Source of the DNA: a virus
DNA length: 64,000 bases
IMG/VR virus record: IMGVR_UViG_3300011429_000004
Span: 331 to 64,330 of that record
Strand: one strand, 5' to 3'
The position numbers and the translations under genes are program-made. Under the pieces are notes generated by a model. That model did not search any database. It was not told the DNA's origin and saw only the letters and a list, made by a program, of their open reading frames with translations. Below are positions 19,722 through 56,249 of this stretch, in pieces (positions within the stretch are counted from its first letter, which is position 1; each line of letters begins with the position of its first letter).

Positions 19722-19916
19722 ATGTTACAAACATATTTTAAGCTTAAAGAACTAGAGGAAGAACTTAAACAGATTGTCCAAGACTTGAAGAAATTCAAGT
19801 CGTTAGCTCCCTATGAACAAGCCTATGTATGGCGTCGTTCGCATGAAATTCTTAGAGAAGAGCAGCAACTTTTGGGTCAAGTCTTGACAATAGACAAGGG
19901 ACCGCCTAAACTCTGA
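19722..19916 (+). CDS. Hypothetical small coiled-coil protein.
   Basis: 64 aa ORF with an RBS aggaggcacc upstream. First gene after the strand switch. Confidence 0.3.
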   Translation: MLQTYFKLKELEEELKQIVQDLKKFKSLAPYEQAYVWRRSHEILREEQQLLGQVLTIDKGPPKL

Positions 19917-19939
19917 ATTGAACCTTTCGCGTGATGCCT

Positions 19940-20230
19940 TGCGAACGTTCATAAACTGGCCCCTAGGGTGATTCCTGGGGGCCTCCTTTTTCTGGGGTGT
20001 CGTTGGGTAGCTACAACTCTAGGGCTCGCCACAGGCCAGCCTTGGGGCGCACAGACCCTCTTGCCAAGGGGGCGCCTCGATGGCACTATGTGGCTTCGCG
20101 CTTCTGGGGACGCTACCCCGCACCCCCTAGGGGCGCTGCCCCGGTGCTGTTTCGCCCCCCTAAGGTTACCAGCACCGGGGCAACCAACAACAAAACACTA
20201 CAAATACAACAAAACACTACAAATAAGGCA
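19940..20230 (+). other. GC-rich, highly structured non-coding leader followed by a tandem AC-rich 19-nt repeat, immediately upstream of the RNR start.
   Basis: About 65% GC in an AT-rich genome. Perfect 11-bp inverted repeat ccccggtgctg / cagcaccgggg, other GC hairpins and several CTAGG motifs. Tandem repeat acaaaacactacaaata x2 at 20191-20227. Confidence 0.4.
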
Positions 20231-20237
20231 TCAAACC

Positions 20238-22016
20238 ATGAATATAGCCGTACCTACGTCACAACTATATGTTGATGGCGCTGACTCTCCTTTAACGCCA
20301 TATGGACAAGAACTAAGATACTTCGATCAACTTCACCAAGAAAAATACCGAGATAGTAACCAACCTAAGGCACATCATACAGAGATTTTAGCCAATAATC
20401 TAGCTAGTGATAGTACTCATTATCTTAAAATATATGATGCTCTTAGGTTTAACAGATTTCTCCCAGCGGGAAGGGTCCAAGCAGCACTAGGAGCAACAGA
20501 ACGTGAAGTATCTCCCTTTAATTGCTCTGTATCTCAGCGCATTGAAGATAGTATGGATTCTATTATGGCGGCATTGGGCAATGCTGCAAAAATACTCCGT
20601 CTCGGTACAGGAATTGGATATAACTTTAGTAATCTCAGACCCCAAGGCGCCGAGATTAGGAAGCTTAAAACTCAATCATCCGGCCCACTCTCATTCATGA
20701 AAATCTTCGATGTAATGGCTTCCACCATTGCATCGTCTGGTCACAGACGCGGCGCACAAATGGGGATTATGAATGTATCGCACCCGGATATCGAAGCGTT
20801 TATTGATGCGAAAATGCAAAAAGACGCATATAGACAATTTAATCTCAGTGTCGGAATTACAGATGATTTTATGCAATGCGTTGAAGAAGATAGAGAATGG
20901 GCACTCAATTTCAACGGACAAGTCTATAGAACTATTAAAGCAAAAGAGCTTTGGGAGAAAATTACAAAAAATGCTTACAATAGTGCAGAACCAGGAATCC
21001 TCTTTATAGATAGATTTAATAAATCTAATAACTTATACTACTGCGAACAAATAGAGGCTACTAATCCCTGTGCTGAGCAACCCCTTCCTCCTTATGGATT
21101 ATGCACTCTTGGCAGCTTTAATCTTGTTGCTTATGTGTATAATAACGGAGAAGAGATAGGGTTTAACCATGAATGTTTTAAACATGACATTCATACAATG
21201 GTGGAAGCCTATGATAATATATTTGACGACGCCGTATATGCCATACCAGAGCACGAAGCAGAAGCTAAAAGTAAACGTAGAATTGGACTGGGGCTTACCG
21301 GGATCGCAAATGCCATCGAATATCTCAGTGGCAGACCTAACTACGGAGAAGATGATTTTTGTGACAAATTATCAAAAATTTGTGAGATGCTAAGAGATGA
21401 AACCTATCAAGCAAGCGTCAACTTGGCAAAGAGACGAGGACCTTTCAGGCTTTATTCAAGTGAATATACAAAAGGGAAATTTATCCAAACTTTGCCTGAT
21501 GCCTTGCAATCTGAAATTAACAAGCACGGTATACGTAATTCGCACCTTATCAGCTACGCACCTTGTGGTACAATATCCCAAACTGCCGGAAACATTTCTT
21601 CGGGCGTGGAACCAGTATTTCACTACGAACAGTCACGAGATGTGTATATGAAAGAGGGCAAGGTTAATGTCACGATTAAAGATTATAACTACCGAACTCA
21701 TGGATTTCTTGGGAAGACTCTTGAGCGGTGTAGTGTCAGTGACCATATGGCTGTTGCTAACGTTATTCAGCATTTTTGTGATAGTGCAGTGTCAAAGACT
21801 GTTAATGTAGCTAGTAATTGCTCCTACGAAGAGTACCAAGAAATATATAAAGAAGCGTATAGAATAGGTCTCAAGGGGATCACGGTCTACAGGCCAAATG
21901 ATTTAAGAGGGATAGTTATTAAAGCGGCTGACGTTAAAGAAGAAATTATAAAACAAGAGGGATGCTCATTTGAAAGCATCCCTACTAGCTGCGTAAACGG
22001 CGCTTGTTCACTCTAG
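20238..22016 (+). CDS. Ribonucleotide reductase catalytic subunit. It is probably a monomeric class II (B12-dependent) NrdJ-like enzyme, since no beta-subunit gene is adjacent.
   Basis: Motifs NPCAEQPLPPYGLCTLGSFNL (active-site NPC[GA]E and CxLGSxNL) and FLPAGR, plus a C-terminal Cys pair. The annotated ORF start at 19968 lies in the GC-rich leader; the real start is probably the ATG at 20238 (MNIAVPTS). Confidence 0.65.
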   Translation: MNIAVPTSQLYVDGADSPLTPYGQELRYFDQLHQEKYRDSNQPKAHHTEILANNLASDSTHYLKIYDALRFNRFLPAGRVQAALGATEREVSPFNCSVSQRIEDSMDSIMAALGNAAKILRLGTGIGYNFSNLRPQGAEIRKLKTQSSGPLSFMKIFDVMASTIASSGHRRGAQMGIMNVSHPDIEAFIDAKMQKDAYRQFNLSVGITDDFMQCVEEDREWALNFNGQVYRTIKAKELWEKITKNAYNSAEPGILFIDRFNKSNNLYYCEQIEATNPCAEQPLPPYGLCTLGSFNLVAYVYNNGEEIGFNHECFKHDIHTMVEAYDNIFDDAVYAIPEHEAEAKSKRRIGLGLTGIANAIEYLSGRPNYGEDDFCDKLSKICEMLRDETYQASVNLAKRRGPFRLYSSEYTKGKFIQTLPDALQSEINKHGIRNSHLISYAPCGTISQTAGNISSGVEPVFHYEQSRDVYMKEGKVNVTIKDYNYRTHGFLGKTLERCSVSDHMAVANVIQHFCDSAVSKTVNVASNCSYEEYQEIYKEAYRIGLKGITVYRPNDLRGIVIKAADVKEEIIKQEGCSFESIPTSCVNGACSL

Positions 22017-22520: not shown

Positions 22521-22806
22521 TTTTTTTCCCTTTCCAGCTTGTCTAGTCGTTTTTCTGTCTTTCGATGCTCAGTAGCACTAATAAGACAGTATACCCCTAT
22601 AATCATTAGTATTACATCTCTCCATTCCATTTTACACCACCTGCAAGAGAAGCCTAGGAAGTTCCGCTTTAGTGTAAACTAAACTTGTCCTAGGTCATTT
22701 TGATCGCGTCCTTAATACTTATTTCTTGTCGTCTTGCTGGGGATTGATACTTACAAAGCCCTTAAGCCTTACGACTTGCGATCTTACGTTTGGCTCCATT
22801 TCATTG

Positions 22807-22879
22807 GAGCCGCTAATAGGAATCGAACCTATCACACCCTGATTACAAGTCAGGTGCTCTACCAACTGAGCTATAGCGG
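22807..22879 (-). tRNA. tRNA-Thr (anticodon TGT).
   Basis: The reverse complement folds as a cloverleaf: acceptor GCCGCTA/TAGCGGC, D-arm GCTCAGTTGGTAGAGC, anticodon loop CTTGTAA, T-arm ATAGGTTCGATTCCTAT. The ORF at 22719-22916 is its translation artefact. Confidence 0.8.
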
Positions 22880-23059
22880 CGGTTAAGTGGTATGTGTTGC
22901 ATGTAGTACCGAGCAACGGGCGGTTTACACTTCTGCGGTTTTGTATCTTCTTACATTGGCCAGTACTCTCTATACTACGGGAGAATTTTGGTCAATGGTT
23001 AACAACCTCGATCACGAAAACGTGATTGACTTTTGCCTCTCTCTATGCTATAGAGGCAC

Positions 23060-25182: not shown

Positions 25183-25267
25183 GCGCTCATGGCGAAATTG
25201 GTAGACGCAACAGACTTAAAATCTGTCGGGAAATCCCGTGTGGGTTCAAGTCCCGCTGAGCGCACCA
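25183..25267 (+). tRNA. tRNA-Leu (anticodon TAA), with a long variable arm and encoded CCA.
   Basis: GCGCTCATGGCGAAATTGGTAGACGC...anticodon loop CTTAAAA...variable arm CGGGAAATCCCG...GGTTCAAGTCC...GAGCGCACCA. Confidence 0.8.
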
Positions 25268-25763: not shown

Positions 25764-25839
25764 AGCCGCTTAGCTCAATTGGCAGAGCATCTGATTTTGA
25801 GTCAGAGGGTTATAGGTTCAAATCCTATAGCGGTTGCCA
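25764..25839 (+). tRNA. tRNA-Gln (anticodon TTG), with encoded CCA.
   Basis: AGCCGCTTAGCTCAATTGGCAGAGCATCTGATTTTGAGTCAGAGGGTTATAGGTTCAAATCCTATAGCGGTTGCCA. Acceptor and anticodon stems pair. Confidence 0.75.
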
Positions 25840-34787: not shown

Positions 34788-34952
34788 ACATTATTAACCT
34801 TTGAGTGCTAGGATGCCCTTCTGCCGAGCGCTGAGCCGCGCTAGGCGAGCCGCAGGGGACCACGCAGGCAGAGAGGGGTTTCCCCACAAGGTCCAAGGCG
34901 GCTTGCCACTCCTTACGCATCCTAGGCCGATCCAGACGCTAGCGGGGCATCC

Positions 34953-35186
34953 ATGGCGACCTACGAGACGATAGACGACCTCAAGGCAGGCATCGATAGG
35001 GTGAGGGAGGAAGGGCGCAAGATCATCTCTCATTTTAACCGTTTAGAAAGAGAGTACAGTGATTGGGAAGAGCGCGTTTTAGAACTTGAAAACGCGATCC
35101 AACAAGCCCAAGAAGACGCAGGACTGACTAAAGAAGAAATAGTGCAACAGATAAACGAACCTGAGTTGAGTTTATTCGATGACTGA
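34953..35186 (+). CDS. Small acidic coiled-coil protein (GC-rich codon usage).
   Basis: 77 aa ORF immediately after a GC-rich structured element. Confidence 0.25.
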   Translation: MATYETIDDLKAGIDRVREEGRKIISHFNRLEREYSDWEERVLELENAIQQAQEDAGLTKEEIVQQINEPELSLFDD

Positions 35187-48237: not shown

Positions 48238-48658
48238 AGTGTTACTCCTATCTTATTAGTGCCACTAAGCACTCGCTCACTGGCATGTGTGGACCCTTGG
48301 TAAGCTTATATACAACAGCTAAGCCTACCACACTAGAGAATAGCGCACCAATAGTAAAAGAAGTAACAATACTTTTCATTTACTTACCTCTGATCCTGTA
48401 GGATCAACCTGGTTGTTAATACCCATATATAGTTGCATCTGATATTTTATCTCGTGCCACAGCTAGGCGCAGTGCGTCCTTGGCCTCAACATACGTCTTA
48501 AACCTTGTTGCTTGCTTAAAGGCAGTGACCCATTCCCAATGGGAGCCATCTTCCCAGATGTTAAGATATCGCTTACCTTTGAGAACGCCGAGAGTTACTA
48601 TATACATCTTGTTTCCTTTCATTCGCTCTGCGCTGTTGCGCAACCGCTTATGGAGTGA

Positions 48659-48949
48659 CTAGTACTTCATCGCCTTGTTATCTACAACTATTAACAGACG
48701 CATACCACTGACTTCAATGTTGGTGAACGCTTGATCTAATAGTTTTTCACCGTCACGCTTACTGGCCTCAAGAACTACCATAGGTATACCGTCCACTTGG
48801 TGCATGAGACGCCATAGATTAAGCTCCGGCAGCCACCCAAAACATAGCACATCAGACTTTGAATAAGTTTTAATATTTGCGCTTTGAAGCGCAAACATTT
48901 TAATTTGGTTAACTGTGTCTTGTGTGGGCATGTTATATGCAACTCTCAA
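48659..48949 (-). CDS. Hypothetical protein.
   Basis: 96 aa ORF. Confidence 0.25.
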   Translation of the reverse strand: MRVAYNMPTQDTVNQIKMFALQSANIKTYSKSDVLCFGWLPELNLWRLMHQVDGIPMVVLEASKRDGEKLLDQAFTNIEVSGMRLLIVVDNKAMKY

Positions 48950-49954: not shown

Positions 49955-51718
49955 TTACTTTATCATATTCCATTGCGCATCGCTAAGACCCTGCTTTAGT
50001 GTGGCGTGCTCAACTAGTTCTTGAGATACACCAGCCGCTAAAAGCGCTTCACCATAGATCGACGCCCTAGGAGTGATAGTATAGCCTTGAATAGATGAAT
50101 TTCCGGTTTCTAGCTTACGGCGAACCTGCCTAACTCTAGCAAGCCAAGTCTTGTTGGCACACAGCGCATCCTCTAGAGCCTCGTCTAATGGCCAATGCAG
50201 GAACACAAAACGATTGGTCAAGGCAAAATCTTGCTTGAACCGACCAACGTATTGCACGGTGCCACCCATGCCACAAGTGTTAGCACCGGCTACAATGATG
50301 CACTGATGATGCCTGGGGACCATCTTATCGGGGAATGAGGCTAGGCCGTTAGCTAATGCACCATTTAGCGCAAGCAAAGCATCAGGCATAGAGCCGTCAA
50401 TCTCATCGAACATATAGACGCCACCATGCTCCCATGCTTCCCTAAATGCAGTAGACATAAATTGCCCATTGGCGTTTATGAAGCCTTGCAGCTGGAACGC
50501 TGTTGCGATAGCGCCATTGTAACGGTATTTGTGTTGGCCGGGAAAGAACACCTCGGCAAGCTTCTCTGCGGCTGTAGTCTTGCCCGTACCGGCTGGACCG
50601 TGCAACCATATGTTGCAATGTGCACCTGATCTAAGCTTGGCGCTGGCGAATTGAACCAATGCAGGAAAGCAACGATGCTGCACGCCCATGTTGAGCGGCG
50701 GCAGGTCTACGCGCTTTAGTTCGATGATTGTTGGCGCTTTTAACTGTATTTTAGCTGTTTCCTCATCGATATATTTGCGTAGCGCGCTTCCAACGTTTTC
50801 TACAACTTTAATTAGTTGTTCACCGTTGACATAGTTCTTAGATTGCAACAAAGCATGAGTAACAAACTGTGAAATGTCAAGTTGCATCTTAATGTCGGGC
50901 TGGCCATTAGGCTTAGGTGTCTCAGTTGTACCATTGTTATATTCTACTTTAGTGTCGTCGGGGAGTTCCGGCAGCATATCATCAAATATCTTGGACTCGT
51001 CTTGCCCCAATACTTTATCCTTGTTGCGCGCGCCTTGCGGACGGCCAACTTTATAGCGCGACCGCGCCATATTGTGTGCTTGGTTTAGATCGTTCTCAAG
51101 GAAATACTTTTGCAGATAGGCTGCGAGCGCACCAGCGTTATACTTAAAACGCTCATCAATGTCGAAACGGGAATAGTAAGGCGTGTTTTGGACCTCCCAC
51201 AGACATTGCAGCATCATGCGAAGATGCTTGTAGTTTTGCCCGTATTGCTTGCGAACGTATTCCGAGCCGGTCATTTTATCCCCCGTTGTATCGTCTCGCT
51301 CCGCGCCTGGACGCGACCGCTCGACTGGTGTTGTGCTCTTATTATAGGGCGGGGAGTATTTATAATCAACTAAAGATTGTTTAGTTGTGTTATTTAGTTG
51401 CTCAATCTTAGGTTGCAAAGGTAAAGGTAAAAAGTATAGTTGATTTTTTATGAATTTATCTAAAGCCGCATTAAATTTTTTGAGTTCATTTTCTGTTGTT
51501 AGTTGTGTATAAATCTCTTGGGCTAAGATAGGATTCTTATTTTGTGTTATTATATCATCTTTAATTAATGGTTGCTCGCTCGGTGGCGCAGGACCATTGT
51601 ATATAGTATCTCTTTGGTTTGTTGATTGTGGTGGCGACGCAAATCGTGTGCGATACTCGCAGCAAAACGCGCAATCGCAGTCTGATCTGTAATCAGATGG
51701 GCCGTCATAGGTTGACAT
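49955..51718 (-). CDS. AAA+ ATPase of the AAA_5 (MoxR/CbbQ/McrB-like) type with a long N-terminal extension bearing a Cys cluster.
   Basis: Walker A HGPAGTGKTT, Walker B VYMFDEIDG, then ALLALNGAL. N-terminal CDCAFCCEY. Codon composition shifts within the gene. Confidence 0.55.
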   Translation of the reverse strand: MSTYDGPSDYRSDCDCAFCCEYRTRFASPPQSTNQRDTIYNGPAPPSEQPLIKDDIITQNKNPILAQEIYTQLTTENELKKFNAALDKFIKNQLYFLPLPLQPKIEQLNNTTKQSLVDYKYSPPYNKSTTPVERSRPGAERDDTTGDKMTGSEYVRKQYGQNYKHLRMMLQCLWEVQNTPYYSRFDIDERFKYNAGALAAYLQKYFLENDLNQAHNMARSRYKVGRPQGARNKDKVLGQDESKIFDDMLPELPDDTKVEYNNGTTETPKPNGQPDIKMQLDISQFVTHALLQSKNYVNGEQLIKVVENVGSALRKYIDEETAKIQLKAPTIIELKRVDLPPLNMGVQHRCFPALVQFASAKLRSGAHCNIWLHGPAGTGKTTAAEKLAEVFFPGQHKYRYNGAIATAFQLQGFINANGQFMSTAFREAWEHGGVYMFDEIDGSMPDALLALNGALANGLASFPDKMVPRHHQCIIVAGANTCGMGGTVQYVGRFKQDFALTNRFVFLHWPLDEALEDALCANKTWLARVRQVRRKLETGNSSIQGYTITPRASIYGEALLAAGVSQELVEHATLKQGLSDAQWNMIK

Positions 51719-52435: not shown

Positions 52436-52867
52436 GATAGCTGTGAATAGTTGATACTTTGATATGGTGAGGTGTTCCGCCCATCAAGAAATACATTTCA
52501 AGACAGGCTTTGATTGTTGCACTGTCTATGTTGTATTTACGGGATAATAGAATGGAGATTGTTGTCATTGTTGCCCCTTTTCATTCGCTCCGCGCTGGTG
52601 CGCGACCGCTCATGAATTTACTTTGTCCATTCGGCTCTAGCCTTTGCTTCGAGCGATGCAAGATCACGCAGGAAATTGCGCTGCATGATTGTCGGCACGA
52701 ATTGGCCAGCCGTGTCGGCCTTGACAAGGTCGCGTTGCGCCTCGATCATTTGAAGGATCAGATAGTTGTCGCGCTTGTCATAGTTCTTAATGCGGTTTTT
52801 GCGGTTCCAGGACATTGTAGTTCCCCTTTTAAGCTCTTAATCGCTTCGCGATACGTGCCTAGCTGCG

Positions 52868-55842: not shown

Positions 55843-56249
55843 GCTCACGAGCGGTTGCACCCCAGCGCAGAGCGAGAGATACAATGCCTTTTGATAGAAA
55901 CCGTACACCTATTGCAGGTGATTTAAAACTTATAACAGTTAGTGTATCCACTGTTGCGAGCGCAAGTGTTCCTACAGGTTATAGAGGATTATTTCTTATT
56001 ACAAGCTGCTCTATGACTATTGTAACTCCTGGAGGTACTTCTGTTCCTCTTGATAACCTTGCTAAGAACTCTTTCATTTGGATGGAGATAGCTTTTGTGA
56101 GTGTAATAGCTACAGCAACATCAGCGTATGGAATTATATGAAAGTGCTTAAAGAAGTAGTGTGTAAGAAATGTAAAACTAAATACGAAACGCCGAAAGGC
56201 GCTGAGAGTAAGTTTAAATTTTGGTTTTGTGTGGAGTGTAAATATAACA

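Follow-up and report, generated by a model that had tools for sequence, protein, structure and literature searches.

What a block of GC-rich DNA is doing in front of a phage ribonucleotide reductase (RNR) gene was the question raised by a 64,000-nucleotide stretch of viral DNA, positions 331 to 64,330 of IMG/VR record IMGVR_UViG_3300011429_000004; this whole stretch is called the window below, and positions are counted from its first letter. A first-pass annotation had marked 19940-20237 as a GC-rich, structured, non-coding element, with a riboswitch, an RNA thermometer, an RNase III processing hub, a small non-coding RNA and the remnant of an inserted element as candidates. The region is real and non-random, because its GC content rises sharply, it holds repeats and its fold is far more stable than that of shuffled sequence (z = -5.6). 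The GC content reaches 61-70% across 19950-20199 in 100-nt windows, against about 41% for the whole 64 kb, and the minimum free energy (MFE) of the 321-nt RNA 19920-20240 is -141.9 kcal/mol, against -111.8 ± 5.4 kcal/mol in dinucleotide shuffles (z = -5.59; none of 100 shuffles equalled it). We concluded that this is a conserved non-coding control region in front of the RNR gene, and that it is a composite RNA-based control unit and not one long riboswitch. Its parts keep one order across a phage lineage, and the loop of its first hairpin is complementary to, and covaries with, the Shine-Dalgarno (SD) sequence of the RNR gene. Regulation of RNR is the most likely role, with the small non-coding RNA the best-fitting of the earlier candidates; at a probability of roughly 0.6, we propose that a leader-encoded small RNA (sRNA) resembling SuhB/MmgR, together with the structured leader, controls RNR translation by masking the SD.

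Complementarity between a hairpin loop and the ribosome-binding site

The comparison was built on 20 distinct related leaders (window excluded), found by RNR-protein searches in IMG/VR, JGI/ENA metagenomes (including soil and Hainich groundwater) and Logan assemblies. They come from uncultivated phages with RNR 59-86% identical to that of the window; L004, L005, L007, L092 and L165 were duplicates of loci already counted. Eighteen of the leaders stand behind the model, two (L198 and L199) were held out and fetched after the model had been fixed, and most per-leader statistics were obtained on 17 leaders including the window. All related leaders are GC-rich, 240-330 nt long and placed between a divergent primase gene (or one or two small open reading frames, ORFs) and RNR. 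The 18 leaders and the two held-out ones share a common layout, so that both conservation and structure are found in related phages. Since RNR loci about 48% identical or less have no GC rise upstream, the element is lineage-specific, limited to the RNR clade of at least 59% identity.

The decisive feature, which the first-pass annotation had missed, is a 9-nt complementarity between 19932-19940 and 20225-20233; these and all further features of the leader lie on the plus strand. The anti-Shine-Dalgarno (anti-SD) sequence TGATGCCTT (19932-19940), in and next to the loop of the first hairpin (H1), is 100% complementary to its predicted target, the SD region AAGGCATCA (20225-20233), whose GGC stands 8 nt upstream of the ATG. 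Base for base, the H1 loop region UGAUGCCUU complements the RNR SD AAGGCAUCA, which follows 284 nt downstream. In the other leaders the SD reads (C)GAGGC(A/G)(U/C/A)C and stands 5-8 nt before the ATG, and loop and SD are complementary in every leader with differing sequences, as in the pairs GAUGCCUCG/CGAGGCAUC, UUGACGCCUC/GAGGCGUCAA, GUGGACGCCC/GGGCGUCCAC, GUGCCUCU/AGAGGCAC, UUUGCCUC/GAGGCAAA and UCGGCCUCG/CGAGGCC of relatives. The held-out leaders likewise carry anti-SD loops complementary to their own SD (GAUGCCUC/GAGGCAUC and GUGCCU/AGGCAC).

Covariation was assessed in a gapless alignment of the 17 leaders anchored on the invariant GCC and GGC, with 500 partner shuffles. Anti-SD/SD cells were paired in 82.4% of cases, against 71.9% in the shuffles, none of which reached the observed value. 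Double-sided changes were present at 8 of 11 pairs, and the position adjoining the GCC core is U-A, C-G or G-C among the leaders. The covariation score was 0.316 against 0.150 after shuffling (again reached by 0 of 500), with slid-register controls at or below 0.165. The mean energy of loop/SD duplexes was -16.0 kcal/mol for cognate and -13.2 kcal/mol for non-cognate combinations (permutation p = 0.0002). RNAduplex, run on the whole sRNA against the whole 5'-untranslated region (5'-UTR), returned uninformative duplexes with long loops. The long-range helix appeared, unconstrained, in both the MFE and the centroid folds of the window leader and was recovered in 6 of 9 relatives folded; across leaders it has 6-12 bp and spans a loop/SD distance of 230-330 nt. 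Complementary changes at sites so far apart would not be expected from common descent alone.

Sites like AAGGCATCA were not enriched elsewhere in the window. The neighbouring DUF7307 (Pam3 gp33-like) gene has the SD GAGGCAC in the window, and the SD of this gene in relatives does not follow the loop sequence; RNR is thus the only target with comparative support. Two side observations concern SD sequences of this kind. A local hairpin at 23035-23059, GCCTCTCTCTATGCTATAGAGGC, would sequester the GAGGCAC SD of the DUF7307 gene (start 23060), and GAGGCA-type SDs occur at several early genes (19722, 23060 and, on the minus strand, 36521).

Layout of the leader and its setting

The functional unit begins 5' of 19940: the start chosen by the first-pass annotation cuts the first hairpin (19919-19951) in half, and the promoter (19884-19912) lies further 5'. 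This predicted promoter, PA, is a near-consensus sigma-70 site, TTGACA-17-TAAACT, that scored 10/12 in the promoter scan, and has a predicted start near 19919; the 64 kb contain only one other perfect TTGACA-N17-TAnnnT site. An equivalent, TTGAC(A/T)-17-TAnnnT or CAnnnT, lies at the same distance 5' of the hairpin in 17 of 17 leaders and in L198 and L199. H1 itself has 11 bp in the window, by per-sequence folding, with the apical loop UGAUGCCU. It is present in all 17 leaders with 10-17 bp, -8 to -17 kcal/mol (mean z = -1.8) and an invariant GCC that falls in the apical loop or borders it; its stem differs in sequence between lineages (TTCGC/GCGAA, ACACG/CGTGT, CGTAGG/CCTACG, GGTTG/CAACC and others). 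Because a MAFFT alignment of the hairpin-terminator unit, made for a covariance model, misaligned the H1 arms, this hairpin was assessed sequence by sequence.

About 7 nt 3' of H1 lies the intrinsic terminator T1 (19958-19993), GGCCCCUAGGG-UGAU-UCCUGGGGGCC followed by UCCUUUUUCU, for which the terminator scan gave 11 pairs, 8 of them G-C; the 11-bp stem (19958-19983) runs directly into TCCTTTTTCT, as an intrinsic terminator should. T1 was found in 17 of 17 leaders, with a stem of 9-18 bp and -18 to -30 kcal/mol; 5-9 of the 10 nt that follow are T, and compensatory changes occur at 3 of 7 aligned stem pairs. Sequence inspection revealed no antiterminator, that is, no upstream sequence complementary to the 5' arm, and T1 looks constitutive because nothing upstream can compete for that arm. 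The window has 72 nt from the predicted PA start to the end of the U-tract; 15 of the 16 other leaders have 70-92 nt. Both held-out leaders (L198, RNR 70% identical; L199, 64%) have PA, H1 and T1 with its U-tract. An nhmmer profile of the H1-T1 unit found one copy per related locus, always upstream of RNR; it detected no further copy in the window and none at some 150 loci whose RNRs are more distant. A scan of IMG/VR and of genomes from 185,579 species with one restrictive hairpin-terminator DNA pattern produced 2 viral and 19 genome matches, all by chance, these being ordinary terminators in GC-rich genomes.

T1 is followed by a GC-rich spacer (19994-20060) that keeps its size (68-74 nt in 13 leaders) and varies in sequence; no other segment varies as much among the three closest relatives, and no conserved helix was found in it. 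Next comes a putative second promoter, PB (20061-20089), of the extended -10 type: CTC-TTGCCA, then 17 nt ending in TGg, then CACTAT, with a predicted start near 20096. The PB pattern has this sole match in the 64 kb and lies at the same position in 13 leaders. Relatives keep no more of it than the two hexamers, the TG and the spacing of 17 nt; the constant bases are the TTG of the first hexamer, the TG one base 5' of the second hexamer and the A2 and T6 of the latter, and the spacer sequence is free and does not covary. The promoter scan flagged PB equivalents in L003 (TTGCCA-17-CATATT, TG present), L169 (TTGACA-17-TACACT) and L199 (TTGACC-17-TACACT, TG present), and the held-out leaders carry a TTGNCN-17-(TGg)NANNNT site 70 nt (L198) and 13 nt (L199) after T1.

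This central part is where the strongest competing explanation has to be judged, namely that a single cis-acting leader of about 320 nt is transcribed from PA only, that its 5' hairpin region closes onto the SD and that its GC-rich core acts as a sensor of temperature, of a protein or of a ligand such as adenosylcobalamin or a deoxynucleotide, as a translational riboswitch or thermosensor would. The stable fold of the leader, closed as a whole by the 5'-3' helix in MFE and centroid structures, would suit such a device, as would the GC-rich character kept across the clade and the sensible biology of placing a B12-dependent enzyme under sensor control. The spacing of the core motifs is conserved as well: five leaders align without a gap over 71 nt around them, and a sixth needs one gap. 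Nevertheless, an all-against-all screen of column pairs found no fixed-register covarying helix in the 71-nt core, and the only candidate helices consist of invariant sequence (UGCCA/UGGCA, CCA/UGG) and are broken in L097, L086, L169 and L170. An attempt at a single consensus structure of the central domain, with MAFFT and RNAalifold on six leaders, gave almost nothing. For these reasons the core was reinterpreted as a promoter, its conserved motifs behaving like -35 and -10 hexamers, and the centre is probably better read in this way than as an aptamer.

The terminator argues in the same direction, since a canonical one with 5-9 U, and with no antiterminator, stands about 40 nt after the start and before any aptamer. 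In L169, the GC-rich domain is replaced by ordinary sequence, and the hairpin, the terminator, the SD pairing and a consensus TTGACA-17-TACACT 69 nt after T1 are still in place; L172 carries an insertion of about 160 nt in mid-leader. No riboswitch or thermometer family of Rfam matched at E <= 10, and the sequestering partner of the SD lies 284 nt away from it, which speaks further against a thermometer. We therefore consider a sensing cis leader unlikely. As observations in their own right, L169 2413-2441 is a natural variant that has lost the GC-rich central part and kept the consensus second promoter, and the insertion in L172 (about 2210-2370), between terminator and second promoter, is AT-richer.

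A further alternative is that the region contains signals at the DNA level only, two promoters, a terminator and regulator sites for a switch among replication genes, with a loop/SD complementarity that has no function. The conserved matches to promoter and terminator consensus would be accounted for in this way, and upstream of PB the CCAC and CTCTTGCC motifs might serve as operators. Such signals do not predict that compensatory changes keep sites 230-330 nt apart complementary, nor that H1 stems change sequence yet stay paired, and this explanation is accordingly even less probable than the sensing leader. A sigma-54 reading of TGGCAC was rejected on inspection of the sequence, which has no GC element at the required distance, and no NrdR boxes were seen.

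Downstream of PB the 5'-UTR opens with hairpin A (20098-20136), GCGCUUCUGGGG...CCCCUAGGGGCGC, which is present in MFE and centroid structures, starts at the predicted PB +1 and is highly conserved in the two closest relatives, L085 and L164. Most leaders place their first strong UTR hairpin 5-9 nt beyond the -10 hexamer, at the predicted +1; 5'-terminal stabiliser hairpins, such as that of the ompA leader, have this placement. Hairpin B (20137-20182) has a perfect stem of 13 bp and a 20-nt loop. The first-pass annotation had rightly seen a perfect inverted repeat here and had put it at 11 nt; it has 13, TGCCCCGGTGCTG at 20137-20149 and CAGCACCGGGGCA at 20170-20182. Two stem pairs differ from those of L085 on both sides with pairing kept (U-A to C-G and G-C to A-U), and loop sizes of 7, 20 and 21 nt occur. 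In L097 (595-660), two UTR hairpins with C-rich loops weakly match the actinobacterial 6C RNA (RF01066; 28.8 bits against a gathering score of 47, E = 2.8), which is probably a chance likeness of C-rich loops.

Between hairpin B and the SD lies an A/C-rich linker without any G (20183-20224) that holds the tandem duplication ACAACAAAACACTACAAAT, with a 19-nt unit in 2.1 copies at 100% identity (20187-20225 by TRF). The duplication ends 12 nt, not 10 nt as first described, before the ATG at 20238. It is not a conserved trait: L085 and L164 have a single copy, so that the duplication is private to the window, and what all leaders keep instead is an A-rich, G-poor linker of 20-45 nt before the SD. 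The sequence CCCCTAGGG occurs at 19960 and 20124, and CCCCTAAGG at 20157. CCCTAGG motifs, noted in the first-pass annotation, do not define the element, for CTAG is about 2.4-fold enriched over all leaders, yet has 0 occurrences in four of them.

The gene downstream of the leader, at 20238-22016, encodes a class II-type RNR of 592 aa (Pfam Ribonuc_red_lgC, E = 2e-101), and its best phage matches are annotated nrdJ or class II. A listed ORF starts at 19968 and reads the GC-rich part as low-complexity peptide. The Pfam RNR barrel domain begins far downstream of that start, and tblastn alignments with phage RNRs begin only at residues 6-28 of the protein that starts at ATG 20238. The identical protein in public collections is called as 592 aa, and 113 full-length relatives without an intein insert measure 562-628 aa. 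Between the window and its two closest relatives, the leader has indels of 1, 4, 14, 20 and 23 nt, so no reading frame is tolerable in it. An N-terminal extension of RNR was ruled out by these alignment starts, protein sizes and indels that are not multiples of three. The start at 19968 is an artefact, as already suspected in the first-pass annotation, and RNR begins at ATG 20238. Automatic ORF starts that run into the GC-rich leader, in the window and in L168, call for correction. In L168 (2501-2545, protein P0031), the public gene call begins 45 nt too far 5', inside the leader, and the conserved SD CGAGGCATC and an ATG at 2546 mark the same artefact. Four homologues of this clade (P0058, P0060, P0069 and P0086) are 786-916 aa long. 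Pfam finds PF14528 in the first two and PF13392 with PF14890 in the last two, which we take to be LAGLIDADG, HNH and intein-splicing domains, a sign that inteins or homing endonucleases have inserted into the gene.

The window is an essentially complete phage genome of about 64 kb, and an identical RNR stands on a public contig of 64,186 nt. The replication module consists of a DUF5906/VapE-type helicase and a DUF7146-Toprim primase (minus strand), followed by RNR, the DUF7307 gene and a DNA polymerase. No nucleotide similarity to deposited phages was found for the window in near or distant search mode, and the closest RNRs of cultured phages, from Roseobacter, alphaproteobacterial and Pseudomonas siphoviruses, are about 49% identical. 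Three tRNA genes lie beside the replication genes, Thr-TGT (22805-22880, minus strand), Leu-TAA (25183-25267, plus strand) and Gln-TTG (25764-25839, plus strand), and relatives likewise carry tRNAs just 3' of RNR.

Two other GC-rich features of the window were noted. A second intergenic leader of high GC content (0.635) lies at 34806-34956, before a 77-aa ORF (34953-35186). Its 5' end UGCUAGGAUGCCCU pairs with GGGGCAUCC-AUGGC around ATG 34953 and so closes the whole leader, which contains CTTGCCA; its fold has a z of only -1.4, and the relatives found were distant loci only. GC-rich hairpin repeats, TTTCATTCGCTCYGCGC...GCGCRACCGCT, occur at 48617-48660, 51296-51322, 52579-52622 and 55850-55875 (inverted), spread over about 7 kb of a minus-strand gene block, and may be terminators or regulatory stem-loops.

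Likeness to known regulatory RNAs

At the gathering threshold, Rfam recognised three tRNAs only in the whole window, and at E <= 10 the region and 19 related loci gave no riboswitch, thermometer or c4 match. The scan for riboswitch families, suggested with the first-pass annotation, was therefore negative for the window region and its relatives, the cobalamin and 2'-dG classes included. A structured, GC-rich leader before RNR does resemble the cobalamin riboswitches found before RNR genes (RF00174/RF01689), and a link to B12 would be plausible for a class II enzyme. Unlike these, the leader lacks a B12-box and a covarying aptamer, matches neither model at E <= 10 and has its terminator ahead of the structured part. 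The cobalamin switches known to us repress B12-independent RNRs rather than nrdJ. Elsewhere in this phage, whose RNR is a B12-dependent class II enzyme, a 587-aa protein (49955-51718, minus strand), presumably a CobS-like AAA protein, matches PHROG 249 'porphyrin biosynthesis' (E = 1.6e-34).

One sub-threshold match was recurrent. The suhB/MmgR model RF00519 aligned over its full length (model 1-77), on the plus strand and exactly on the H1-T1 unit, at seven loci: L168 (30.3 bits), L198 (28.4), L084 (24.9), L167 (22.4), L086 (21.8), L085 (20.8) and the window (17.7), all below the gathering score of 41 bits. Like SuhB/MmgR RNAs (alpha-r8), the unit has a 5' hairpin, a single-stranded stretch and a Rho-independent terminator. 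Members of that family are about 77 nt long and end at such a terminator, and the predicted RNA of the window has 72 nt. Between H1 and T1, L168 reads GCGUUUCCUCCCUCAACU, and the RF00519 consensus reads GCGUUUcCUCCCUAgACU. The C-rich motif of the family, cCUCCCUA, is present in most relatives (for example UUUCCUCCCUCAACU in L168 and AUCCCCUAGACU in L097); its place in the window is taken by GUUCAUAAACU, with a 5-nt gap in the alignment to the model.

The likeness extends to the predicted mode of action, for SuhB/MmgR RNAs carry an anti-SD motif and repress translation by pairing with SD sequences, as the phage unit is predicted to do. MmgR is a 77-nt Hfq-dependent alphaproteobacterial sRNA with an anti-SD motif (PMC7143759), and its homologue SuhB represses thnR by binding the SD region with Hfq (bioRxiv 10.64898/2025.12.09.693200). 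The phage RNA differs in being encoded immediately 5' of its predicted target, on the same strand, and in its predicted pairing through the H1 loop, (G)AUGCCUC(G), whereas SuhB/MmgR members are chromosomal, trans-encoded and have many targets. The H1-T1 unit may be a diverged, phage-borne and retargeted relative of SuhB/MmgR; we do not file it as a member, because its score is below the threshold and the window copy has no C-rich motif.

By analogy, the genomic logic is closest to the c4 antisense RNA of phages P1 and P7 (RF01695), also a short RNA that shares its strand with the genes under its control and precedes them. In the classical model, c4 RNA is cut out of the operon transcript, pairs with the ribosome-binding site of the downstream icd gene in the same operon and blocks its translation. 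The trait of this type seen here is an upstream, same-strand, 9-nt perfect complement to a downstream ribosome-binding site, covarying in 17 leaders. The c4 RNA of P1/P7 shares its operon with icd and ant, and its binding site lies upstream of icd (PMC8198154, PMC2864571). Neither the window region nor its relatives matched the RF01695 model at E <= 10; the 3' end of the phage unit, unlike that of c4, is set by a terminator, and where c4 controls the immunity circuit of an antirepressor, the phage unit faces a gene of nucleotide metabolism. P4 CI RNA and Gifsy-1 IsrK are similar leader-derived phage RNAs.

Proposed mechanism and its meaning

Considering the layout and the covarying complementarity, we propose the following model. 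Most transcripts from PA would end at T1 and give an sRNA of about 72 nt, and the RNR mRNA would come mainly from PB, the second, weaker, extended -10 promoter. This mRNA would begin with two stabilising hairpins, followed by the unstructured A/C-rich linker and the SD. The loop of the sRNA would pair with the SD region and block ribosome binding, so that RNR translation is lowered or timed; the sRNA would act in trans on PB transcripts, and the same pairing would act in cis on PA transcripts that read through T1. More speculatively, the U-tail of the sRNA and the A-rich linker of its target would suit Hfq-assisted pairing, and a G-free, C-containing linker might let Rho terminate untranslated mRNA.

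Several points weigh against this model. We infer the short RNA, both transcription starts and the direction of regulation from sequence. The 17 leaders are related by descent, so that shuffle statistics overstate their independence, and the anti-SD is partly paired within H1 in many leaders, so that H1 must open for the pairing to form. The PB of the window scores only 8/12, below the default cut-off of the promoter scan, and the conserved motif could instead be a protein-binding site. The family likeness lies under the gathering score at every locus, and at its lowest in the window copy (E = 0.66), which has lost the C-rich motif. The persistent GC-richness of the spacer between T1 and PB, like the enrichment of CTAG, is left unexplained by the model. 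That the region is instead a functionless leftover of foreign DNA rich in GC (from a mobile element or captured from the host) or an RNase III processing site is very improbable: a GC content 20 points above the genome, enriched CTAG-containing palindromic motifs and a possible kinship with a host-type sRNA, hinting at host origin for part of the region, agree with it, but the position, order and spacing of the parts are fixed down to 59% RNR identity, neither the 64-kb window nor the other loci contain a second copy, no phage genome matched and the one restrictive pattern over viral contigs and 185,579 species gave chance matches only, and a long-range duplex of 6-12 bp and a longest local stem of 13 bp fall short of the duplex of about 20 bp typical of an RNase III substrate.

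Under the sRNA model, comparative data alone have led to a specific, testable sRNA-target pair, the loop at 19932-19940 and the SD at 20225-20233. We know of few phage-encoded sRNAs with a defined target and of none that controls ribonucleotide reductase. The finding is a new variant of known regulation, not a new principle, and the compact module of an sRNA gene, a second promoter and a hairpin-capped UTR could be reused in synthetic constructs. A bolder reading, which we offer tentatively and regard as doubtful, is that this phage lineage of soil and groundwater carries its own SuhB/MmgR-type sRNA, with the loop retargeted to the ribosome-binding site of its own B12-dependent RNR, and that one Hfq-type sRNA would both time the supply of deoxynucleotides (dNTPs) and reprogramme host translation. 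Under that reading, host mRNAs might still be targets of the C-rich motif, which most members keep. An evolutionary tie to a host sRNA family is possible, and this may be a case of a phage borrowing the design of a host sRNA.

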